Virus record (IMG/VR): IMGVR_UViG_3300030732_000036
Span: 1 to 42,470 of that record
Direction: 5' to 3' (one strand)
From: a virus
Length of the DNA stretch: 42,470 bases
Below the pieces are notes generated by a model that was given only the letters and a program-made list of their open reading frames with translations, did no database searches and was not told where the DNA came from. Made by a program: the position numbers and the translations under genes. The number at the start of each line of letters is the position of its first letter. The stretch's first letter is position 1. Positions 1 to 42,470 of this stretch are shown piece by piece.

Positions 1-99
1 CCCAGAGGCCACACATTCTTCCGGGCGCGAATCGTTCGCAGTTGCATTGCGGGCTGCGCTCGCCGTTCGACCAACTGCTTGCAGCGCAGATGGTCAGGG
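1..99. repeat. terminal direct repeat, copy 1 (identical to 42372..42470)
   Basis: The first 99 nt (cccagaggccacacattcttcc...gcagatggtcaggg) recur base-for-base as the last 99 nt. An ORF reads through the junction, so this is a circular-assembly overlap or terminal redundancy. Confidence 0.95.
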
Positions 100-283
100 C
101 GCGGCAGTGGCCGCTATCGAATTCGCCCTGGAATCTGACGACGGCGATGGGTTCCTGCGCAACTGGTTCAATGGCGAGTTCGACATTTGCCGCGAGCACT
201 GGCCGGAAGCGCCAGAAGGCGTCTATATCGGCGCTGACCCGCTCTACAGACCTGCCGCCAAAGGTGCAGGCGGTCAGGGATGA
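1..283 (+). CDS. hypothetical protein, C-terminal part of a wrap-around ORF (N-terminal part is 41911..42470; 247 aa after circularisation)
   Basis: The frame of 41911..42470 is still open at the window end. After removing the 99-nt overlap it is in phase with the ORF ending at TGA 281..283 (461+283=744 nt). Confidence 0.6.
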   Translation, partial: PEATHSSGRESFAVALRAALAVRPTACSADGQGAAVAAIEFALESDDGDGFLRNWFNGEFDICREHWPEAPEGVYIGADPLYRPAAKGAGGQG

Positions 284-660
284 AAACGCTACGCGAAATC
301 CGCATGTGGCACTGGCGCCAGGTCGTGAACAGCCGCCAGCTCGAGCGCGACCACGAGGCCGGCCTGCAGGCGTGGGGCAACGTCCACTACAGCACCAGCA
401 GCATCGCCAGGCACAGGGCCGACGCCGACCGCCACCTGCGCGCGGTGCAGACGCTGAACGAGTTCGTGACTGGGGTGGCCGAGTACGATTGCATGGAGGC
501 CGATGGCCGAGACCCTGACGGCCTTGCGCGGCGGGCGCGCGGCGAACCGGTGGATGTCATTACGGTTAAAGGGTCTGGGCCCTTCATTGCGGCGCTGCGG
601 GCGAATGCGCCGAGCAAGCCCTTTGCGTCCGCTATCGTCGATGGCGGGGTTGATCCATGA
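280..660 (+). CDS. hypothetical early protein (126 aa)
   Basis: ATGA start/stop overlap with the upstream ORF, inside a same-strand coupled gene chain. No motif recognised. Confidence 0.6.
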   Translation: MKTLREIRMWHWRQVVNSRQLERDHEAGLQAWGNVHYSTSSIARHRADADRHLRAVQTLNEFVTGVAEYDCMEADGRDPDGLARRARGEPVDVITVKGSGPFIAALRANAPSKPFASAIVDGGVDP

Positions 661-857
661 GCGCCACCGGCGAAACGGGCATCGTGCAAACCACCACGTT
701 CACCTGCCAGGTGTGCGGCCACGTCGAGCAGACCGTGGAGGATGTGTCCCTGTACAGCGAGACTATCGTGATGTCGCCGAATGGCGGGTGGAATTTTGAC
801 TACGTGGAGATAGACGGGGTCGAAAAGTTCGTTTGCCTGAAGTGCATGCCGAAATAA
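657..857 (+). CDS. small zinc-ribbon-like protein (66 aa)
   Basis: ATGA overlap with the upstream gene. Two CxxC pairs (CQVCG ... CLKC). Last gene before the promoter/hairpin cassette. Confidence 0.6.
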   Translation: MSATGETGIVQTTTFTCQVCGHVEQTVEDVSLYSETIVMSPNGGWNFDYVEIDGVEKFVCLKCMPK

Positions 858-858
858 T

Positions 859-888
859 TTGTACAAATAAACCGGGCTCGGCTATACT
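859..888 (+). promoter_or_regulatory. sigma70-like promoter, rightward: TTGTAC-N18-TATACT, with the -35 inside palindrome TTTGTACAAA (858..867)
   Basis: Hexamers read directly in the 152-nt non-coding gap. Same palindrome-plus -10 module as at 5692-5720, 29435-29463 and 33069-33096. Confidence 0.45.
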
Positions 889-916
889 CATTTCCGCCAA
901 GCCTTATTTACCTAGT

Positions 917-1000
917 ATGCCCCCGTGGGGGCGCTCCCACCCGGTACTGGCCGGGAGGCTTGGCAGCCGGGAGCGCGCCCACGGGGGCATTTTCATTTCG
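917..1000 (+). terminator. structured hairpin S1: 22-bp stem (917-938 / 969-990, 21 of 22 paired), 30-nt loop with two mini-hairpins, then TTTCATTTC
   Basis: Pairing checked base by base; the only mismatch is G930/G977. A T-rich tract follows, and the GGAG RBS of the next gene comes directly after it. Confidence 0.5.
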
Positions 1001-1009
1001 GAGTGCCAA

Positions 1010-2194
1010 TTGCAATATAAAATTCTCCAAGGCGATTGCGTCGAAGCCATGCGCGCGATGCCTGATAACTCCTTCGACTCGATCGTGACCGACCCACCCT
1101 ATGAACTCGGGTTCATGGGTAAGGGCTGGGACAGTACCGGCATCGCCAATAGTGTGGAGATGTGGCGCGAGGCGCTGCGCGTGCTCAAGCCTGGCGGCCA
1201 CCTGCTGGCGTTCAGCGGCAGCCGCACCTATCACCGCATGACGTGTGCGATTGAGGATGCCGGGTTCGAGATCCGCGACCAGATCATGTGGGTCTACGGC
1301 TCGGGCTTCCCGAAGTCGCTGGACGTGAGCAAGGCAATCGACAAGGCGGCCGGCGCAGAGCGCGAGGTTGTTGGCACCAAGCTGGGGCTACCGGGCTACT
1401 CGCTTGCCGAGGACAAAGGGCGAAGCACTTACAGCGCTGAAGGGCGCAGCAGTGAGGTTGAGTGCGCAATCACCGCGCCAGCAACCGACGACGCCCGCCA
1501 GTGGTCCGGCTGGGGCACCGCCCTGAAGCCGGCGCACGAGCCTATCTGCGTGGCGCGCAAGCCGCTGGCCGGCACCGTGGCGGCGAACGTGCTGCAGTTC
1601 GGCACTGGGGCGATCAACATCGATCGGTGTCGAGTGCCTACCGATGGCGCTGATGCGCGAAACTGGTCTGGCGATCGTGGCCAGGTTGGCACTTCACGCA
1701 ATTCAGATTTTGCGTTGACGGCCGGCAGTGCTGCTGAACTCGGACGCTGGCCAGCCAACATCATCCACGATGGCAGCGACGAGGTGGTGGCGCACTTTCC
1801 GATCACGACTAGCGGCGCTGTAAAGCCCGGCACCTGTGCGGCTGCGGACGAGAACCGTCTAACCTTCGGGCAGTTTGACGGCTACGAAATGAAACCGCGT
1901 GAAAAAGACACCGGCAGCGCCGCTCGCTTCTTCTACTGCGCCAAGGCGAGCAAGAGCGACCGCGGCCCCGGCAATACTCACCCCACCGTCAAGCCGCTGG
2001 CGCTGATGCGCTACCTGCTGCGCCTGGTGACGCCGCCGGGTGGCCGTTCGCTCGATCCGTTCATGGGCAGCGGTACCACGATCGTGGCCGGCCTGCAAGA
2101 GGGCCTGTCCATGACGGGCATCGAGCTGCACGCCGAACATATCGAGATTGCGGACCGCCGCGCGGAAATCGAACTTATCGGAGACCTGCTGTGA
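1010..2194 (+). CDS. DNA methyltransferase, N6-adenine/N4-cytosine type (beta-class order: DPPY ... FxGxG)
   Basis: Motif IV is SIVTDPPY near the N-terminus and motif I is DPFMGSGTT near the C-terminus. TTG start at 1010 has GGAG 6 nt upstream and gives the typical N-terminus (M)QYKILQGDC. An in-frame ATG at 917 is an alternative start but lies inside the S1 stem. Confidence 0.85.
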   Translation: MQYKILQGDCVEAMRAMPDNSFDSIVTDPPYELGFMGKGWDSTGIANSVEMWREALRVLKPGGHLLAFSGSRTYHRMTCAIEDAGFEIRDQIMWVYGSGFPKSLDVSKAIDKAAGAEREVVGTKLGLPGYSLAEDKGRSTYSAEGRSSEVECAITAPATDDARQWSGWGTALKPAHEPICVARKPLAGTVAANVLQFGTGAINIDRCRVPTDGADARNWSGDRGQVGTSRNSDFALTAGSAAELGRWPANIIHDGSDEVVAHFPITTSGAVKPGTCAAADENRLTFGQFDGYEMKPREKDTGSAARFFYCAKASKSDRGPGNTHPTVKPLALMRYLLRLVTPPGGRSLDPFMGSGTTIVAGLQEGLSMTGIELHAEHIEIADRRAEIELIGDLL

Positions 2195-4302
2195 TGGCCA
2201 CGCCCGACACCCTCCCCGCCCTGCTCCCCGTCACCGTCGACGGCATCCCCGCCAGTATGCTCGACACCCCCCGCTGGGCGCCGTGGCGTGCGGTGTGGAA
2301 CGCCAAGAAGGAGAAATACGAGAAGATCCCCCACCGCGCCGACCGGGTGCAGTCCGGCCTGTCGAACAAGTCGAGCAAGGGCTGGTGCGCCTTCCATGTG
2401 GCCATGGCCGCCTACCTGAAGAATCCGGACCTGTTCGCCGGCGTGGGCTACCTGATGACCGGCGCGCACGATCTGGTGGCGGTGGACCTCGACCATTGCG
2501 TGCAGGACGGCGAGATCGCGCCGTGGGCGGCGGAGGTGGTGGCCAAGCTGGACAGCTACACCGAGGTCAGCCCGTCCGGCCGAGGCCTGCGGGTGATGAT
2601 CGAGGGGACCATCGAGCGGGACTGGACCAATCACGATGTGGGTATCGAGGTGTACGGCGGCGGCGACGCCCGCTTCGTCACCATCACCGGGGCCAGGCTG
2701 CCGGGCAGTCCGGGAACGGTGCGCCGGCCGCGCGGCGGGGCCATGGACGCGATCACCGCGCGCTACCGCAAGACCAAGACGGCGGCCGAGATCGAGGACC
2801 TCCACCTGCCGGCGCTGCTGGGGGCTGACGAACTGCCCGATATCAGCGAGCTGGAGATCCCGCCGCACGCGCGCAACTTCCTGATGGACGGCGCCGAGCC
2901 TGGCCGGGACCGTTCGCAAGCCCTGTTCGCCACCTCGATCGCGCTGCGCCAGTCCGGGCTCGAGCGGCAGGTGATCCTGTCCATACTGGAGGCGAACGAG
3001 CACGCCATGGAGGTGGCCATGGACCACCGGCGCCAGGATTACGACAAGGCCGTGCGCTACCTGTGGAAGGACCATTGCCAGGCCGGCGTGGCGCGGGCCG
3101 ATGGGCTCCGCCAGCTGTCCATGGACGAGTTCGACGAATTGGAGGCCCAGGAAGGGCCCGCCAAGGCCTCGCCGGTGGCGGCCGGGCAGAACGGGGTGGC
3201 TGACGACTTCGACGTGCTGGACGACGATTTTGCCGACCTGCTGGGCGTGGGCCCAAAAGTGGACCGGGCGCCGGTCAAGCTGCCGCGGTTCACCCCCTTG
3301 CCGCTGACCTCCTTCATGCACCGCAAGCCTGCGCGCTGGATCGTGCGCGGCGTGCTGCCGCAGGCGGGCCTGGTGTTGCTTTATGGCGACAGCGGGGCGG
3401 GCAAGACGTTCTTCGCGCTGGACCTGGTCGGCGCCGTGGCGCGCGGCATCGCCTGGCGCGGCCACACCGTGAGCAAAGGCCGGGTGGTCTATATCGTGGC
3501 CGAGGGCGCAACGGGCTTCCGCAATCGGGTGCTCGCCTATTGCGAGTTCAACGGCATCGAGCCGGCCGACCTCGACATTCTGGTCATCCCGGACGCACCC
3601 CAGCTGCTCGACAAGGCCCACATCAAGGAGCTGGTGCTGGCGATCAAGAAGGTCGGGCCCGTGGCGATCGTGGTGGTCGACACCTACGCCCGCGCCATGG
3701 CCGGCGCCAATGAGAACGACGCCAAGGATACGGGGCAGGCCGTTGCCCATTGCGACCTGATCCACCGCACCACCGGGGCGCTGGTGCTGCTGGTGCACCA
3801 CAGCGGCAAGGACGGCAGCCGAGGGGCGCGGGGCAGCGGGGCGCTTCGGGCGGCGGCAGACGCCGAGATTGAAGTGTTGCAATTACGCGACTACCGGGCC
3901 GCCACCGTCACCAAGATGAAGGATGGCGAGGACGGCAAGGAGTATGCGTTCAAGCTCAACGAAGTCACCATAGGGCTGGACGACGAGGGCGAGGCTATCA
4001 CCTCCTGCGTGGTCGAGGTCCGCGCCAGCGGGGCACCCGCCAAGGCCATGGAGAAGGTGCGCTTGACACCCGTGCAGCAGCTGGTGCTGAGGGCCTTTGA
4101 CACCGCCGCCGATCTGGGCGGCCAGGGCATGCACTATGCCGACATCAAGCAAGCCGTGGTCGACCAGATACCCCGCGATCTGGAGAAGAAAAAGGACAAT
4201 CGCCACCGCGATGTGGGCAATGCGATCGAGGCTTTGGTCGGTTATGGTTATCTAAATAGCATCGAAGGTGGCATGTTGGTACGTGCAGAAAATAACGTGT
4301 AG
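2194..4302 (+). CDS. bifunctional primase-polymerase (AEP/prim-pol N-terminus) fused to a RepA/DnaB-like (AAA_25-type) helicase
   Basis: N-terminal half has VAVDLDHC (DxD) and YTEVSPSGRGL motifs. C-terminal half has Walker A (GDSGAGKT), Walker B (IVVVDTYARAM) and LVHHSGKDGSRGARGS. ATG 2194 overlaps the upstream stop; GTG 2191 is an alternative start. Confidence 0.85.
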   Translation: MATPDTLPALLPVTVDGIPASMLDTPRWAPWRAVWNAKKEKYEKIPHRADRVQSGLSNKSSKGWCAFHVAMAAYLKNPDLFAGVGYLMTGAHDLVAVDLDHCVQDGEIAPWAAEVVAKLDSYTEVSPSGRGLRVMIEGTIERDWTNHDVGIEVYGGGDARFVTITGARLPGSPGTVRRPRGGAMDAITARYRKTKTAAEIEDLHLPALLGADELPDISELEIPPHARNFLMDGAEPGRDRSQALFATSIALRQSGLERQVILSILEANEHAMEVAMDHRRQDYDKAVRYLWKDHCQAGVARADGLRQLSMDEFDELEAQEGPAKASPVAAGQNGVADDFDVLDDDFADLLGVGPKVDRAPVKLPRFTPLPLTSFMHRKPARWIVRGVLPQAGLVLLYGDSGAGKTFFALDLVGAVARGIAWRGHTVSKGRVVYIVAEGATGFRNRVLAYCEFNGIEPADLDILVIPDAPQLLDKAHIKELVLAIKKVGPVAIVVVDTYARAMAGANENDAKDTGQAVAHCDLIHRTTGALVLLVHHSGKDGSRGARGSGALRAAADAEIEVLQLRDYRAATVTKMKDGEDGKEYAFKLNEVTIGLDDEGEAITSCVVEVRASGAPAKAMEKVRLTPVQQLVLRAFDTAADLGGQGMHYADIKQAVVDQIPRDLEKKKDNRHRDVGNAIEALVGYGYLNSIEGGMLVRAENNV

Positions 4303-4316
4303 GTAAAATTATGCAT

Positions 4317-4437
4317 GCTTCATTTGCTTCATTTGCTTCAAACTGCTTCATTTGAAGCAAATCACCCTTGCTTCATTTGCTTCACTCGCTTCACCCCTAA
4401 AGGGGTGATGAAGCGAAGTGAAGCAAAAAGGTGAAGC
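4317..4437. repeat. iteron array: 7 direct GCTTCA and 4 inverted TGAAGC copies; probable replication origin
   Basis: GCTTCA starts at 4317, 4326, 4335, 4345, 4370, 4379 and 4388. TGAAGC starts at 4353, 4409, 4419 and 4432. Spacing is 9-10 bp. Central palindrome is GCTTCACCCCTAAAGGGGTGATGAAGC. The array has AT-rich flanks and lies directly after the primase-helicase gene. Confidence 0.7.
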
Positions 4438-4475
4438 AGTACAGGGCGTGTAAATTTTTACAGATTGGAGTGGTC

Positions 4476-4814
4476 ATGACCTGGTCGGACGAATCAAGGC
4501 AATCGCGCGGTTACGACGCGGCGTGGGAGAAGGTCAGGGCCCGGGTGGTGGAGAGGGACAAAGGCCTGTGCCAGGCTTGCCTCGTGCATGACCGGGTGAG
4601 CATCGGGCAAGAGGTGGACCACAGGGTGCCCAAGGCCGAATGCGCTAAGCGCGGGTGGACCCGGGCCCAGACCGATGCCGAGTCGAACCTGTGGCTGCTG
4701 TGCAAGCCCTGCCACAAGGCCAAGACGGCGAGGGAGAACGGCCGGGTGCTGGTGCCCAAGGTCGCCTACGGGGTGGACGGATGGCCGCTTGACAACCCCG
4801 AAAGGCTGGTTTAG
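4476..4814 (+). CDS. HNH endonuclease (packaging-associated type)
   Basis: Motif pattern CQAC...EVDHRVP...NLWLLCKPCHKAKT. GGAG lies 5 nt upstream of ATG 4476. The longer ORF from 4431 would start inside the iterons. Confidence 0.85.
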   Translation: MTWSDESRQSRGYDAAWEKVRARVVERDKGLCQACLVHDRVSIGQEVDHRVPKAECAKRGWTRAQTDAESNLWLLCKPCHKAKTARENGRVLVPKVAYGVDGWPLDNPERLV

Positions 4815-4849
4815 GATTCGTCCTACTGGTGTGGTCGCATCGGTGGTGC

Positions 4850-4934
4850 AAGGGCTTTGCCTTGCGTTCTCAGACGGGAGACCGTTGGTTGCGACCACAA
4901 CCCGAGAACGTGAGGCAAAGCCCTTTTTCTATTT
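4850..4934 (+). terminator. structured hairpin S2: 22-bp stem (4850-4871 / 4904-4925), 32-nt loop with two mini-hairpins, then TTTTTCTATTT
   Basis: All 22 positions pair as plus-strand RNA; the two non-Watson-Crick positions are G-U wobbles. A U-tract follows immediately, then GGAG and ATG 4947. Confidence 0.6.
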
Positions 4935-4946
4935 CCGGAGCGAAAC

Positions 4947-5399
4947 ATGGACCGCATCATCGTCGTGACCACAACGCACGCCAGCACCGCCGACCAGCTC
5001 AACACGCTGCGCAAGCGCGTGATCGAGCAACTGCCGGCGACGGGCTATGTCGTCCTGGTCGTGCCAAACCACGTCGAGGTGCACGAGCTGGGCACGCGGC
5101 AGCAGCCCGAGCGGCATGGGCAGGCCGAAGTCGAACAGATGCTCGGCGAGCCGGGCACTGCGCCAGCGGCGCCGGACACCACGACCAGCCCATCGGGCAG
5201 CAAGGTCGAGCACGTCAGCGCGGAGGTGTTCGACGAACCAATCCGCTACGTGTGGCTGTCCCGGGAGGAAACGACCGATGACCAGCGCGCCATGGCGGTA
5301 GGCGTTGACACGATGCGCGTGCCGCCACGGTGGGCGATCTCGCTCGACCAGCTCACGCCCGACCAGGTGCTGTTCGCCCGTCCGATCTGCGAGCTGTGA
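4947..5399 (+). CDS. hypothetical protein (150 aa)
   Basis: GGAG lies 7 nt upstream of the ATG. GC-rich codon pattern typical of the genome. No motif recognised. Confidence 0.6.
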   Translation: MDRIIVVTTTHASTADQLNTLRKRVIEQLPATGYVVLVVPNHVEVHELGTRQQPERHGQAEVEQMLGEPGTAPAAPDTTTSPSGSKVEHVSAEVFDEPIRYVWLSREETTDDQRAMAVGVDTMRVPPRWAISLDQLTPDQVLFARPICEL

Positions 5400-5401
5400 C
5401 C

Positions 5402-5539
5402 ATGGCAAAGATGGACCTCACCAAATTCCTGGAAGCCGTTGGCGGCAAACCGCTGCCGCAATGGCAGCGCGACATGATCAACGCGCTGTGGGCTGCACGC
5501 GTCACGAAGGATCTGTGCGAAAAATTACGCAAGGGGTAG
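5402..5539 (+). CDS. hypothetical small protein (45 aa)
   Basis: The ATG lies 2 nt after the upstream stop. Weak RBS and short length. Confidence 0.35.
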   Translation: MAKMDLTKFLEAVGGKPLPQWQRDMINALWAARVTKDLCEKLRKG

Positions 5540-5691
5540 GGCGGGTCGAAACTTTAAAAGCTTGACTTTTGGAAGGACCGGCGCTAGCCTTCGATTTAAC
5601 GCAAAGGCATAATTTCTTGGGGAAACATTACTGAGATACAACACAATTCAGGGCAATCGGAGGGGTAGCGGGACCTACGAGCTACATGCAA

Positions 5692-5719
5692 ATTATAGCA
5701 CGAAACCGCATTTGTACAA
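5692..5719 (-). promoter_or_regulatory. leftward extended -10 promoter: TTGTAC-N16-(TGc)TATAAT, with the -35 inside palindrome TTTGTACAAA (5711..5720)
   Basis: Minus strand reads TTATTTGTACAAATGCGGTTTCGTGCTATAATTTGCATG. It points away from terS and against all flanking genes. Confidence 0.45.
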
Positions 5720-5726
5720 ATAATTT

Positions 5727-6215
5727 ATGACCACGAAAACCGCCCCCCGCAGAGCCCGATCCGACAGCGCCACCGCCGCGATAAACGCCGCAAAAAATGC
5801 CGCGCTTGGCGACCTTATGCCCCCCGAGCACGTAAAAATTTCCCCTGAAGTTCTGCCCGACTACATCGCCATCGTCCGCGCCCGCGCGCGCGACGAGTGG
5901 AGCGAACTGGACCTGATCGTCGCCGCCCAGCTGGCCGAGGTGATCGGGCAGCAGCGCGAGCAGACTGCGAAAATCACGCTCGAAGGCGACGTGGTGGAAA
6001 ACATGAAAGGCACCTTGGTTGCCAACCCCCGGGTGACGATTCTCGAACGCCTGGCCGGCCGACAAATGGCCTACATGCGCACGCTGCAGATGGGCGGCCG
6101 GGTGCCCGGCACCGCCGGCGACAAGCGCAAGAAGCAAGGCGCGCGGCAGCTTGAACGTGGCGCCCGCGCCGCGCACCAACAAGCCGCCGACGAAACCAAC
6201 AACCTGCTGGCGTAA
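5727..6215 (+). CDS. terS: terminase small subunit (P27-family-like)
   Basis: Lies immediately upstream of terL and is coupled to it by TAATG. Basic N- and C-termini. The call rests on position and loose similarity only. Confidence 0.6.
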   Translation: MTTKTAPRRARSDSATAAINAAKNAALGDLMPPEHVKISPEVLPDYIAIVRARARDEWSELDLIVAAQLAEVIGQQREQTAKITLEGDVVENMKGTLVANPRVTILERLAGRQMAYMRTLQMGGRVPGTAGDKRKKQGARQLERGARAAHQQAADETNNLLA

Positions 6216-7786
6216 TGGCCGCGCGAGCAAAAAAGCCGATGACCCGCGGCGAGCGGGTGATTGCGTTCATCGAAACCTACTGCATCGTGCCCGAGGGCGA
6301 CTTGATCGGCCAGCCGATGCGGCTCGAACCGTTCCAGCGCAAGTGGGTGCTGGAGGTGTACGACAACCCGCACGGCACCCACACCGCCGTGCTGTGCATC
6401 GGCCGCAAGAACGGCAAGACCGCGCTGATCGCGGCCCTTCTGCTGTGCCACATCGCCGGCCCCGAGGCGGTGCAGAATTCCCAGATCGTCAGCGGCGCCA
6501 TGTCCAAGGACCAGGCGGCCATCGTGTTCAAGCTGGCGCGCAAGATGGTCGAAATGTCCGGCGACCTGGCCGCCCGGGTGCGGGTGTTCCCCTCGGTGAA
6601 ATCCTTGCTCGGCCTGTCGAAGAACGTTGAGTACAACGCGCTGTCCGCCGAGGCGAAGACGAAGCACGGGCTCTCGCCGATCCTGGTGATCTTCGACGAG
6701 ATGGGCCAGGTGCGAGGGCCGATGAACGACTTCGTGACCGCGCTCGAGACCGCGCAAGGTGCGTATGACCACGCCCTGAAGTTCATCATCTCGACCCAAG
6801 CGCCGAGCGACGCCGACATGCTGTCCATCATCATCGACGCGCAGCTCGACCCGCTCAACACCCCGGACCCCCAGGTGGTGGTGCACCTCTACACCGCGCC
6901 GATGACGCGCAAGGGCCCGGACGGCAAGGACATCGAGATCCCTTTCGACGACGAGGACGGCATGCGCGCGGCGAACCCGGCGCTCGGGGTGTTCCGGTCC
7001 ATGAACGACCTGCGCAAGCTGTGCACGAAGGCCCACACCACGCCGTCGTTCGAGCCCGAGTTCCGGAACCTGAACCTGAACCAGCGGGTGGAGGCGGCGG
7101 CGCCGTTCGTGCCGCGGTCGGTGTGGATGGCGAACGGCGCCGACCCGGTGGCCAAGCCGCGCCCGCGCGTCTATGGCGGCCTGGACCTCTCGGCCGTCAA
7201 CGACTTGACCGCCCAAGTCCTGGTAGACGCCGACGACGGCAGCGTGTGGCCAACGTTCTGGTTGCCGGCGCACGGGCTCAAGGAGAAGGCGAAAGCGGAC
7301 AAAGTTCCCTATGACATTTGGGAGAAGCAAGGATTCTTGCAGACAACCCCCGGAAAAGCGATAGAATACGAGTTTATAGCCTTGCATTTGCGCAAAGTGT
7401 TCGACGAGAACGACGTGCAGCTGTTCGGTTTCGACCGTTACAACATGAAATTCCTGAAGCCTTGGCTCGCAAAAGCCGGGTTTAGCCAAGAGGAAATTGA
7501 CAAATTTGTTGAATTCGGGCAGGGTACGGCCAGCATGACCCCCGCCCTGCGCGACCTGGAGGTAAAATTGTTGAACGCACAACTTAAGCACGGCAACCAC
7601 CCTGTGCTCAACATGTGCGCAGCCAACGCCAAGGTGGTAGGCGACAGCGGCGCCCGCAAGTTCGACAAGCGCACCATCCGCGGTCGCATCGACGGTATGG
7701 TGGCCCTGGCCATCGCGGCGGGCGTGATGCCGCAGCCGGTCGAGGAAGAGTCCGGCACCCTTGAGGATTACCTGGCCACGGCATGA
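6215..7786 (+). CDS. terL: terminase large subunit
   Basis: Walker A-like motif CIGRKNGKT and Walker B-like motif ILVIFDEMG, followed by a C-terminal nuclease-type region. Sits directly upstream of the portal gene. Confidence 0.9.
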   Translation: MAARAKKPMTRGERVIAFIETYCIVPEGDLIGQPMRLEPFQRKWVLEVYDNPHGTHTAVLCIGRKNGKTALIAALLLCHIAGPEAVQNSQIVSGAMSKDQAAIVFKLARKMVEMSGDLAARVRVFPSVKSLLGLSKNVEYNALSAEAKTKHGLSPILVIFDEMGQVRGPMNDFVTALETAQGAYDHALKFIISTQAPSDADMLSIIIDAQLDPLNTPDPQVVVHLYTAPMTRKGPDGKDIEIPFDDEDGMRAANPALGVFRSMNDLRKLCTKAHTTPSFEPEFRNLNLNQRVEAAAPFVPRSVWMANGADPVAKPRPRVYGGLDLSAVNDLTAQVLVDADDGSVWPTFWLPAHGLKEKAKADKVPYDIWEKQGFLQTTPGKAIEYEFIALHLRKVFDENDVQLFGFDRYNMKFLKPWLAKAGFSQEEIDKFVEFGQGTASMTPALRDLEVKLLNAQLKHGNHPVLNMCAANAKVVGDSGARKFDKRTIRGRIDGMVALAIAAGVMPQPVEEESGTLEDYLATA

Positions 7787-9108
7787 AAAACAAGACCCTT
7801 ACCAGCCTCGCCAAGGGCATCTTCTTCTCCATTCGCGACGCGCTCGCGTACCGTCAGGCCGTTCACGACGCCAACAAGAATGTCACCATCAACACCGGTG
7901 ATAGTACCGCCAGCCGCGCGCCCGGCATTGATGTGGCTCTACAGCTGTCCACGGTGTGGGCGTGTGTGCGCCTGATCGCCGAGACCATATCCACGCTGCC
8001 CCTGTTCACCTACGAGACCGTGATGGTCGACGGCAAGCGCACCCGCCGCATCGCCGACGATATCCCCCTTTACTCCCTGCTGCACGACTCCCCGAACGCG
8101 GACATGACGGCCGTCGAGTTCTGGGAGGCGGTGCTGTCGGGCCTGCTGCTGTGGGGGAACGCCTACGTGCTCAAGACCTACGGCACCGGCGGTCGGCTGG
8201 TGGCGCTGACGCCGCTGAACCCCGGAGTGGTGACGCCGCGGCGCACACCAGGCGGGGCGATCGAGTACCTGTACGGCGACCGAACGGGACAAAAGATCTA
8301 CAGCGAGCGGGACATTTGGCATGTTAAGGGGTTCGGCACAAACGGGCTGTGCGGCCTGTCGCCGATCGGTGTGGGCTGGCGCTCGATGGCCGGTGCCGCC
8401 GCCGCCGAGGTGGCCAGCGCGAACACCTTCACCAGCGGCATGCGGGTGCAGGCGACCGTATCGGTCAAGGAGTACCTGAAGCCAGAGCAGCGCGAGCAGA
8501 TGAAAGAAAAGGTCATGGGCGCCGTGTTCGGTAACGCCCAGACCGGCCAGCTGCAGCTGCTCGAGGGCGGCGCCGAGATGAAGCAGCTATCCATCAACCC
8601 GGTGGACGCGCAAATGCTGGAAACGCGCCAGTACGGCGTCGAGGATCTGTGCCGCTGGTTCGGGGTGCCGCCGTCGATGATCGGCCACGGCACGGCCACC
8701 TCGAACTGGGGCACCGGGCGCGAACAGCAGAACATGGGTTTCGTACAGTACGTGCTGCGCGCCTACATGGTCCGCATCGAGCAGGGGATCAAGAAGTCCT
8801 TGATGACGCCGGCCGAGCGCCTGCGCTACTTCGCCGAATACAGCCTGGACGCGCTGCTGCGCGCCGACACCGAGACCCGGTTCAAGGTCTACGCCACCGC
8901 CACACAGAACGGGCTGAAGACCCGCAACGAGTGCCGCGCGTTGGAGAACGACCCACCGGTGCCGGGCGGCGATGAATTGACTGTACAAAGCAACCTCATC
9001 CCCCTTACACTGTTGGGCAAAATCACTAATACTGCCCAAACAGCAAAATCAGCCCTGCTCGATTGGCTGGGCCTCACCAAGAAGGATCACGATGGACTAC
9101 CTGACTAA
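7783..9108 (+). CDS. portal protein (HK97 family)
   Basis: ATGA coupling to terL. Portal signature LSTVWACVRLIAETISTLPL. Size of 441 aa fits. Confidence 0.9.
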   Translation: MKNKTLTSLAKGIFFSIRDALAYRQAVHDANKNVTINTGDSTASRAPGIDVALQLSTVWACVRLIAETISTLPLFTYETVMVDGKRTRRIADDIPLYSLLHDSPNADMTAVEFWEAVLSGLLLWGNAYVLKTYGTGGRLVALTPLNPGVVTPRRTPGGAIEYLYGDRTGQKIYSERDIWHVKGFGTNGLCGLSPIGVGWRSMAGAAAAEVASANTFTSGMRVQATVSVKEYLKPEQREQMKEKVMGAVFGNAQTGQLQLLEGGAEMKQLSINPVDAQMLETRQYGVEDLCRWFGVPPSMIGHGTATSNWGTGREQQNMGFVQYVLRAYMVRIEQGIKKSLMTPAERLRYFAEYSLDALLRADTETRFKVYATATQNGLKTRNECRALENDPPVPGGDELTVQSNLIPLTLLGKITNTAQTAKSALLDWLGLTKKDHDGLPD

Positions 9109-16938: not shown

Positions 16939-17051
16939 GAATCCGGCCCGCGAGGGCCGCAACCTGGCACTGACCTGCCGCGTGTCGCCCTTCGAGAGGG
17001 CGCGCGCGGCGGGGAGGTGCTTTTACCTCCTCTCGATAAAGGGAAATCAAA

Positions 17052-40491: not shown

Positions 40492-40734
40492 ATGGCGAGG
40501 AAGAAAAAGGCGGCGAACGGCGTGTCGCTAGTCATTGAAAAGGCGAACCCCAAGACCCAGGCCCAGGTGGCGCTGGATATGGGCGTCACCCAGCAGGTGG
40601 TAAGCCATTGGCTGAAGGTGGGCTATATGCCCTTGATCCGGGCCCGCGACGCCGAGGCCCTGTATGGTGTGCCGCGGCGCAAGCTGGTCGACCCCAAGCT
40701 GCTGGGGATGCTCGACGACAAGGGGGCGCGGTGA
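40492..40734 (+). CDS. Cro / YdaS-like helix-turn-helix regulator
   Basis: GGAG RBS. HTH segment TQAQVALDMGVTQQVVSHWLKVGYMP. First gene of the rightward operon. Confidence 0.7.
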   Translation: MARKKKAANGVSLVIEKANPKTQAQVALDMGVTQQVVSHWLKVGYMPLIRARDAEALYGVPRRKLVDPKLLGMLDDKGAR

Positions 40735-41910: not shown

Positions 41911-42470
41911 ATGACAGACGGTGAGATTAACGAAATAACGATGGGCAAGCTCGGGAAGTGGCCGTCATTCGAGGCGCAGGCTTGGGCTTGCAGAGTGGCG
42001 CATGCGGTCCTCGCAGCGCAGCAAGACAGCGACTGCCGCAAGTATTGCCAGCGTGAAGCGGACCAGGCCGCCCGGCCTGCCGCTGCGGACGACCATCTGC
42101 CTAGCCCGACCGGCGAACAGCTTTACACGATGGTAACAAGCCGCTTCAAGTCGGGCAGCTTCCCCTGGGCGACGGTGGCGGAGAGCGGGAAGGAAGCCTG
42201 GAGCGCGGCGGCTGCTGAACTGGCGTTTGCGCCGGACACGATCATGGCGAAATATTCCCCGCGACCTGCCGCTGCGGACGCAGGCGGGCTGTTGGATGCT
42301 GACCTGTTCGAAGAAATGGTGGAGGAAGGCTACACAGCCTTTGCCGAGGACAGCACCGCCTGGCGCAGCGACCCAGAGGCCACACATTCTTCCGGGCGCG
42401 AATCGTTCGCAGTTGCATTGCGGGCTGCGCTCGCCGTTCGACCAACTGCTTGCAGCGCAGATGGTCAGGG
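41911..42470 (+). CDS. hypothetical protein, N-terminal part of a wrap-around ORF (continues at 1..283)
   Basis: GGAGG RBS. I translated the frame by hand to the window end and found no stop. Contains a duplicated RPAAAD motif. Confidence 0.6.
   Translation, partial: MTDGEINEITMGKLGKWPSFEAQAWACRVAHAVLAAQQDSDCRKYCQREADQAARPAAADDHLPSPTGEQLYTMVTSRFKSGSFPWATVAESGKEAWSAAAAELAFAPDTIMAKYSPRPAAADAGGLLDADLFEEMVEEGYTAFAEDSTAWRSDPEATHSSGRESFAVALRAALAVRPTACSADGQ
42372..42470. repeat. terminal direct repeat, copy 2 (identical to 1..99)
   Basis: See copy 1. Confidence 0.95.

Follow-up and report, generated by a model that had tools for sequence, protein, structure and literature searches.

Among the closest described systems to the two elements considered here, E1 (859-1012) and E2 (4789-4949) in a 42,470-nucleotide (nt) window (the whole stretch of viral DNA analysed, IMG/VR virus record IMGVR_UViG_3300030732_000036), is the lambda PR'-qut-tR'/6S RNA unit. 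In that unit, as predicted at E1 and E2, transcription from a constitutive promoter meets an intrinsic terminator after about 100-200 nt, so that a short RNA is made unless termination is overridden; as at E2, the arrangement heads a long operon. Antitermination by Q needs the Q protein, a Q-binding element in the DNA and a sigma-dependent promoter-proximal pause (PMC12360218). Unlike lambda, E1 and E2 show no detectable Q protein, Q-binding element or conserved pause, and E1 heads methyltransferase and primase-helicase genes, only E2 heading the terS/terL/structural block. Transcription of the replication and virion-gene operons is probably controlled at the two elements by an RNA switch and not by a lambda Q-like protein.

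P4 CI, the c4 RNAs of P1 and P7 (Rfam C4, RF01695) and N15 CA are leader-derived, same-strand antisense RNAs. RNAs of this type are stem-enclosed, carry an apical loop complementary to a sequence a few tens of nucleotides upstream in the same transcript, lie between the promoter and the controlled operon and act by premature termination; the P4 operon under CI RNA includes the primase-helicase (alpha). E1 and E2 resemble them in having an apical loop complementary to an upstream segment, and E1 also in its link to a primase-helicase operon. Unlike C4 RNAs, E1 and E2 have neither a covariance-model match nor a conserved target at the ribosome-binding site, and the cassette ends in a U-tract without CCA, whereas the C4/CI end is an RNase P-processed CCA. 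The window also shows no lysogeny or immunity genes among the open reading frames (ORFs) scanned, unlike the phages that carry C4.

Three further systems show how a structured nascent RNA can act near a promoter. The HK022 put RNA, about 70 nt with two stem-loops, lies just downstream of promoters at two sites per genome and acts without a phage protein by binding the beta' zinc-binding domain of RNA polymerase, which confers resistance to termination (PMC9378689). E1 and E2 are similar to putL and putR in copy number and in their position just downstream of a promoter, and as structured nascent RNAs they could likewise act without a phage protein; put is itself no terminator, whereas the hairpins of E1 and E2 are enclosed by a stem of 20-24 base pairs (bp) with a U-tract, and no sequence or structure match has been established with put, which is known here from its published description. 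RNA folds directly 5' of an intrinsic terminator are reported to reduce termination as a general rule, by competing sterically at the exit channel (2026 preprint, bioRxiv 10.64898/2026.06.17.733018), and in the 'tug-of-war' riboswitches of the same preprint, as in the proposal made below, a non-overlapping fold at the 5' edge of the terminator suppresses termination sterically. In E1 the linker that could contact the P2 loop likewise lies directly against the base of the stem. Those riboswitches, however, are ligand aptamers upstream of ordinary terminators, whereas E1 and E2 have no aptamer-like conserved junction and their competing fold would use the terminator's own apical loops. Finally, at the Gifsy-1 prophage locus IsrK, termination close to the promoter produces a short RNA next to a longer read-through mRNA, and the short form acts in trans on the long one (PMC4825925). 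The short and read-through forms recall the cassette layout; IsrK, however, regulates how an ORF further downstream is translated and is tied to the Q-like AntQ, and neither homology to it nor such a target is found at E1 or E2. The regulatory kind suggested for E1 and E2, a promoter-proximal attenuator or leader RNA, is not new in itself, and the mechanism is put forward as a proposal.

A covarying, predicted leader RNA in two copies

The best explanation of the evidence as a whole, with a probability of about one half, is that E1 and E2 are two paralogous copies of one self-contained regulatory cassette. Its parts would be a host-type sigma-70 promoter, a structured leader of about 100 nt, an intrinsic terminator, and the Shine-Dalgarno (SD) sequence and start codon of the first gene (Table 1).

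Table 1. Positions of the parts of E1 and E2, the operon headed by E1, and the paired segments of further copies
Feature	Position	Strand	Description
E1 promoter	859-888	+	-35 TTGTAC 859-864, N18, -10 TATACT 883-888; predicted start ~894-896
E1 5' segment 'A' GCCAAGCC	896-903	+	predicted transcript starts with this segment; can pair with 957-964
E1 linker 'b' CUAGU (CCAGU in relatives)	912-916	+	abuts stem base; complementary to P2 loop 946-950
E1 P1 5' arm	917-938	+	begins 28 nt past the -10 hexamer; 14/17 modelled pairs covary (both sides changed), 100% of cells paired
E1 P2 apical hairpin CCCGG-UACUGG-CCGGG	940-955	+	from RNA fold and RNAalifold
E1 P3 apical hairpin GGCU-UGGC-AGCC	957-968	+	P3 pairs covary; 957-964 is A', partner of the 5' segment
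E1 P1 3' arm	969-990	+	from inverted repeat, fold and RNAalifold
E1 U-tract TTTTCATTTC	990-999	+ only	T-tract kept in all homologs
Methyltransferase SD and start	1000-1012	+	GGAG 1000-1003, TTG start 1010; directly 3' of the E1 U-tract
E1-gated operon (predicted)	1010-4302	+	methyltransferase 1010-2194, primase-helicase 2191-4302
E2 promoter TTGACA-17-TAGGAT	4789-4817	+	10/12, best sigma-70 match of the genome; -10 overlaps the HNH stop codon
E2 5' segment GGUGUGGUCGCA	4828-4839	+	complementary to P3 region 4887-4898
E2 P1 5' arm, 22 nt	4850-4871	+	inverted repeat; fold z = -5.7
E2 P2 hairpin ACGG-GAGA-CCGU	4874-4885	+	GNRA tetraloop; UUCG in L001
E2 P3 hairpin GGUUG-CGACCA-CAACC	4887-4902	+	A' is 4890-4898
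E2 P1 3' arm	4904-4925	+	from inverted repeat and fold
E2 U-tract TTTTTCTATTTCC, SD and start	4924-4949	+	GGAG 4937-4940, ATG 4947 of the 150-amino-acid (aa) ORF
Window E2, 5' segment / partner			GUGGUCGCA / UGCGACCAC
L001 E2, 5' segment / partner			GGGCAAAC / GUUUGCCC
L023 second copy, 5' segment / partner			GCCAGACCA / UGGUCUGGC

At E1, the preliminary description of this DNA had reported a promoter, TTGTAC-N18-TATACT, followed by a 22-bp stem with a T-tract, and both hold up. A consensus scan renders the promoter as TGTACA-17-TATACT with 9/12 matches, and the promoters of E1 and E2 are the only two matches within positions 1-6000, against 0.7 expected. The two arms of the stem, P1, are 22 nt long and 95% complementary, which places them at the top of the inverted repeats listed for the 42.5-kb window, and the RNA fold of 885-1020 (-69.9 kcal/mol, z = -4.8) is equalled by none of 200 shuffles. 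The stem is not that of a simple hairpin; it is capped by a three-way junction that carries two small hairpins, P2 and P3. As in an intrinsic terminator, it is rich in G+C and followed by a U-tract on the transcribed strand, with no T-tract after the stem on the minus strand. A leader peptide or an N-terminal extension of the methyltransferase from ATG 917 was considered and rejected; the ATG has no SD and is not conserved, relatives having AGTAAGC there.

Relatives of E1 were found only in uncultured phages. Searches of GenBank phages by megablast and blastn with the region, E1, an E1 homolog and E2 gave no nucleotide match, and tblastn with the primase reached at most 42% identity there. In IMG/VR, primase homologs with 57-68% identity lie on four contigs of ~41-42 kb, each with an E1 homolog upstream of the primase; having been retrieved through the primase, these four loci are unbiased with respect to the RNA. 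Further homologs were fetched from IMG/VR and JGI metagenomes with a DNA pattern for P2-P3, giving 13 distinct E1 sequences in total, in contigs of ~41-45 kb. Wherever the sequence extends far enough, the primase-helicase follows E1 on the same strand at a distance of 0.2-1.6 kb, with 0-2 genes, often a methyltransferase, in between. Every homolog has a promoter of the form TTGnnn-17/19-TAnnnT, whose -10 hexamer ends 6-7 nt before a conserved 5' segment, a spacing constant within 1 nt. The layout described earlier is supported, namely a promoter and then about 100 nt to a terminator-like structure that must be bypassed. Judged by these comparisons, the E1 promoter, stem and U-tract are conserved features and not products of chance.

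No known RNA family matched anywhere in the window at the Rfam gathering threshold, and permissive searches (E <= 10 for E1 and for E2, E <= 5 for four homologous loci) gave only sub-threshold hairpins of the microRNA-precursor type. Copies in hosts or prophages were also sought with the P2-P3 pattern; its 22 matches in 185,579 reference genomes are at the level of chance and all lack the 5' segment, stem and T-tract. The cassette family has no entry in Rfam 15 and no member among ~50,000 GenBank phage records or 185,000 bacterial reference genomes. E1 and E2 belong to a new structured-RNA family, so far seen in uncultured phage contigs only.

The structure itself is supported by compensatory change. 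RNAalifold on the 13 distinct E1 sequences gives 26 pairs, 16 of them with compensatory changes. In the specified structure 98.4% of cells are paired. Column shuffles give 84.8%, none of 500 attaining the real figure, and sliding the partners lowers pairing to 25-46%. The stems contain G-U pairs, and A-C mismatches, which would be the G-U pairs of a minus-strand RNA, occur in just two cells (C-A), at a single junction pair. In addition, the P2 loop of E2 is GAGA in the window and UUCG in the contig L001, an exchange of GNRA for UNCG, the two classic stable tetraloops. Because G-U is tolerated, the T-tract is on the plus strand only and the loops are exchanged in this way, these patterns indicate that the conserved object is a plus-strand RNA and not a DNA palindrome. 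The junction nucleotides differ in number and identity across E1 homologs. A riboswitch was rejected as a candidate, as there are no invariant pocket nucleotides in the junction or internal loops and no Rfam class match.

Unusually, the 5' end of the predicted transcript can pair with an apical loop of the terminator itself, and the two sides covary. The conserved segment GCCAAG(Y)C, with its GCCAA core invariant in all 13 sequences, starts 6-7 nt after the -10 hexamer in every E1 homolog and would therefore lie at the 5' end of the transcript. This segment (A) is complementary to the 5' arm and loop of P3 (A'). The resulting 8-bp A:A' helix is 99% paired in E1 homologs and shows compensatory changes at 2 pairs, with GCCAAGCC/GGCUUGGC in the window, GCCAAACC/GGUUUGGC in L001 and GCCAAGUC/GACUUGGC in most others. 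Pairing is maintained through four address sequences, the E1 form GCCAAGYC/GRCUUGGC and the three listed at the end of Table 1, with 8-12 bp of leader-to-apex complementarity across copies. Between E2 of the window and E2 of L001 the P1 arms are nearly identical, and the loop and 5' segment have been altered together. Copies within one genome carry addresses that do not cross-react.

Energies agree with this pairing. In all seven elements tested, the leader-apex duplex beats shuffled leaders, with 0-79 of 2000 shuffles reaching the observed energy. The A:A' duplex is worth -11 to -21 kcal/mol, compared with 0 to -4 for P3 alone (-17 and -3.3, respectively, in E1 of the window), and it is present in the minimum free energy fold of 12/12 transcripts correctly truncated before the P1 3' arm. 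At E1, the linker CCAGU can also contact the P2 loop AYUGG through five pairs that are 98.5% paired. A c4-like downstream target at the ribosome-binding site was ruled out, since duplex energies of A' with the 50 nt after the U-tract are not above background (Fisher combined p = 0.52). Across the genome, targets for the two loops stay close to the number given by chance: the E1 loop has 9 where 9.05 are expected, and the E2 loop has 5 where 1.8 are expected (4/100 shuffles reach 5); three of these five are the element's own P3, its own 5' segment and a nearby A'-like site.

E2 repeats the architecture of E1 in a different sequence: a 22-bp stem, two apical hairpins, a U-tract, GGAG and ATG. 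A covariance model built from E1 homologs matches it with 24 bits and E of about 1e-4, such E-values being rough, and no site other than these two elements carries the tail motif TTTC(N)ATTTC(N)GGAG, for which 0 occurrences are expected. Its neighbours are the HNH gene on one side and, on the other, the 150-aa ORF with which the terS/terL/structural/lysis block begins. The preliminary description had placed the promoter-terminator unit at E1 upstream of the whole block from methyltransferase to lysis; that scope is not supported, as E1 heads replication genes and the packaging, structural and lysis genes have E2 of their own. An E2 homolog is found in one relative, L001, where the promoter is kept as TTGACA-17-TAAGCT; searches through terS loci, a collection scan with the 150-aa ORF and a DNA pattern for the P1 arms gave no further ones.

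Some smaller observations concern the copies themselves. The tails of E1 and E2 are more alike within each genome than to their own orthologs (990-1003 and 4924-4940 in the window, ...CATTTCGGAG and ...CTATTTCCGGAG; 2509-2522 and ~6776-6790 in L001, ...TATTTTGGAG and ...CGTTTTGGAG), which hints at within-genome homogenisation or at a host-specific constraint on the junction of U-tract and SD. The sequence CGTCGTGACCACAAC at 4961-4975 (+), 15 nt inside the 150-aa ORF, is similar to the E2 P3 loop region GCGACCACAAC and might pair with the E2 5' segment in its place; the resemblance is close to what chance would give, and L001 does not share it. The contig L023 has a second, divergent cassette (55 bits) 1.4 kb downstream of its first (6789-6898 and 8238-8338). 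The first precedes an HD-domain-like ORF and a methyltransferase, and the second a nuclease-like ORF. As their 5'-segment/loop sequences differ (GCCAAGUC vs GCCAGACCA), the cassette has been duplicated or moved more than once.

Proposed control of operon entry and its alternatives

In at least seven relatives a canonical terminator (e.g. GCCCGCCGCGCGCGGGCTTTTT) lies just upstream of the E1 promoter, and only 3-20 nt separate the U-tract from the SD and start of the next gene, which leaves no room for another promoter. It can therefore be said with fair confidence that the E1 promoter is the only visible entry to the primase operon and that transcription must pass the terminator-like structure. 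With the same even confidence as the cassette reading as a whole, we propose that the RNA is a promoter-proximal attenuator leader in which leader-loop pairing modulates termination. Most transcripts would end at the U-tract as an RNA of ~100 nt, and read-through alone would express the operon: the methyltransferase and primase-helicase from E1, and the packaging, structural and lysis genes from E2. A:A', predicted to be very stable, would form before the P1 3' arm has been transcribed, and at E1 the contact between linker and P2 loop may form too, placing a folded domain right at the stem base. A:A' would tie the P1 5' arm into a closed loop, in which a two-turn helix should be hard to complete while the 3' end is held in the exit channel of RNA polymerase. 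Because the linkers of 9-16 nt look too short, A:A' is unlikely to coexist comfortably with the 20-24-bp P1, and it could act as a non-overlapping antiterminator, steric or topological. The level of read-through would then depend on the timely formation of A:A'; candidate modulators are the terminated RNA in trans or a phage or host protein, each occupying A or A', and the speed of RNA polymerase.

Several points weigh against this reading. The full stem and A:A' may be present together, forming a pseudoknot that serves stability or recognition in place of antitermination; the steric argument (9-16-nt linkers against a 20-24-bp stem) is one that we only infer, and the transcription start, termination efficiency and read-through of E1 and E2 are predicted quantities. 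A stem of 20-24 bp with a branched apex of ~30 nt goes far beyond the typical length of a terminator stem, and a simple terminator scan (stems of up to 20 pairs, loops of 3-8 nt) does not call E1. Eight of the 13 E1 homologs were chosen through their P2-P3 sequence, so that conservation of the loops is partly built in, and the relatedness of the homologs means fewer independent events than the cell counts imply. The contact between linker and P2 loop is a weaker feature, with one-sided changes only, no double compensatory changes and no counterpart in E2. Since E2 occurs in the window and one relative only, it is not essential for late expression across this phage group.

Protein antitermination in the sense of lambda Q or N is unlikely here. 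In that case an early phage factor would modify RNA polymerase at the promoter or leader, the modified enzyme would pass both built-in and downstream terminators, and the conserved RNA would be the recognition site. The promoter-then-terminator layout immediately ahead of long operons fits this, as do the presence of at least one more strong T-tract hairpin (16966-17021) in the ~24 kb E2 operon and the combination of conserved loops with variable stems, which suits protein recognition. The preliminary description had indeed proposed Q-type late control, with the early-right ORFs 280-660 and 657-857 as candidate antiterminators. Neither idea is borne out: the early-right ORFs contain no Q, N or other antiterminator family (Pfam, PHROG), and the two named ones have no Pfam or PHROG match and no homolog in any element-bearing relative (tblastn). 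Across the E1 homologs no DNA element is conserved between -35 and -10, and the stretch transcribed first has no conserved pause site of the -10 type; the -10-like TAGTAT at 912-917 is not conserved, relatives having CCAGTAAG there. The loops of E1 and E2 are also too unlike for one loop-reading protein, and a Q-type DNA-bound mechanism would leave the covarying helix between 5' segment and loop unexplained. Because the conserved feature is RNA structure, the covarying stem and the pairing of 5' segment and apical loop point to a switch at the RNA level rather than to a DNA-bound Q protein. A further option, rather doubtful in our view, is an RNA-only antitermination device, in which the leader-loop fold (A:A' with P2) would serve as a built-in checkpoint and either keep the enclosing terminator helix from being completed, sterically or topologically, or bind RNA polymerase in the manner of put; polymerases with a folded leader would pass this terminator and perhaps later terminators too, and the remaining transcripts would be discarded as the ~100-nt RNA.

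Also rather unlikely is a same-strand 'self-antisense' regulator of the P4 CI, N15 CA or P1 c4 type, in which the ~100-nt RNA, terminated or processed, accumulates and its exposed P3 loop pairs in trans with the nascent 5' segment to drive termination. This would provide product feedback on the primase-helicase operon, as in copy-number attenuation of the pT181 type, with orthogonal addresses in the two copies. The complementary segment does lie upstream in the same transcript, as in P4 seqA/seqB and P1 a1b1/a'b', E1 is strictly tied to a primase-helicase operon with an iteron-like array just downstream, addresses within a genome do not cross-react, and IsrK sets a precedent for a terminated leader that regulates the read-through version of itself (PMC4825925). 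On the other hand, neither Rfam C4 nor another family matches even at E <= 10, the background-level duplex energies reported above leave no conserved complementary target near the downstream ribosome-binding site, and the RNA holds both A and A', so that pairing in cis competes with action in trans. There is also no immunity context, because no integrase, repressor or partition genes were found among the ORFs scanned, and the 3' end is a U-tract, as opposed to the CCA of RNase P-matured c4/CI. A constitutive, unregulated element is less likely again: a leaky terminator or insulator that sets low operon expression, with mRNA protection by the folded leader, whose base-paired start would block 5'-end-dependent decay, and with the two-turn stem as a possible RNase III processing site, as in T7 mRNA. 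The 5' segment within about 1-2 nt of the predicted start would give a base-paired 5' end, the stem length is kept at ~20-24 bp, the size of an RNase III substrate, and sensor-like conserved junction nucleotides are missing. A simple 5' hairpin would be enough for protection, however, and long-range pairing kept through four sequence versions suggests more, as the position at the heads of replication and virion operons suggests control. Very improbable indeed is an element acting as DNA, such as a cruciform or a protein-binding palindrome at an origin, packaging or recombination site. Its rank among the inverted repeats listed for the genome and its nearness to replication genes would be expected of such an element, but the stems tolerate G-U and not A-C, the T-tract and promoter have a single orientation, GNRA and UNCG tetraloops have been exchanged, the arm sequence varies freely while pairing holds, and the iteron array at 4306-4437 is a much better origin candidate.

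If the attenuator reading is true, it would show how uncultured phages of ~42 kb, which encode their own DNA polymerase and in which no RNA polymerase or recognisable antiterminator was found, control entry into their replication and virion operons. The control device would be compact and portable, with promoter, leader RNA and terminator as one unit. A:A', maintained through four sequences, offers a clean, mutable handle on the question of whether intrinsic termination can be vetoed by an RNA fold that does not overlap the terminator. The family also adds a new class of structured RNA, whose orthogonal addresses could serve as parts for synthetic transcription control. Should the RNA-only device be true instead, two orthogonal copies would leave the timing of the replication and virion operons to the kinetics of RNA folding and nothing else.

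Genome setting

Bases 1-99 recur exactly at 42372-42470, and the window is therefore a complete circular assembly of a 42,371-bp phage genome, with a 247-aa ORF spanning the circle junction (41911 to 283). The minus strand codes for helicase, RusA, DNA polymerase, HNH, Gp2.5-like single-stranded DNA-binding protein and exonuclease at ~29.4-40.4 kb, and a divergent region at ~40.4-40.5 kb launches a rightward operon of small genes that reaches 857. The first gene of this operon, at 40492-40734 (+), encodes an 80-aa helix-turn-helix protein (Cro/YdaS-like, weak Pfam matches), the only early-right protein that is clearly conserved among the relatives carrying the element, its gene being located there ~1.3-2.3 kb before E1. 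Opposite this gene is TATACA-18-AATAAT (40440-40411, minus strand), which resembles a divergent promoter. The methyltransferase ORF 1010-2194 is of the N6/N4 DNA type (Pfam PF01555, E = 4e-29). The scan of ORFs brought up no integrase, repressor, partition gene, RNA polymerase or antiterminator family, and neither transfer RNA nor transfer-messenger RNA was found.

The intergenic region between primase and HNH, at 4306-4437, is an iteron-like array that holds 11 of the genome's 38 GCTTCA/TGAAGC hexamers, with direct TTTGCTTCA repeats followed by a central CACCCCTAAAGGGGTG palindrome and inverted copies. In the closest relative (L035, 3760-3905) the layout is identical with a different unit, TTGCCTTCCA, and centre, CCCCCTTTAGGGGG. 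The array is likely a replication origin whose repeat co-varies with the adjacent primase-helicase, and transcription from the E1 promoter would traverse it. Further downstream, the long hairpin at 16966-17021 (+), with 18 pairs and a 16-nt apex followed by TTTACCTCCTCT, lies between two structural-gene ORFs of the plus-strand operon and is a possible internal terminator or attenuator facing read-through from E2. Five contigs (L094, L095, L097, L100 and L102) start 40-50 nt upstream of the terS start, equivalent to about 5680 in the window, which suggests a physical genome end of the cos type just upstream of terS and fits the HNH gene beside the terminase.

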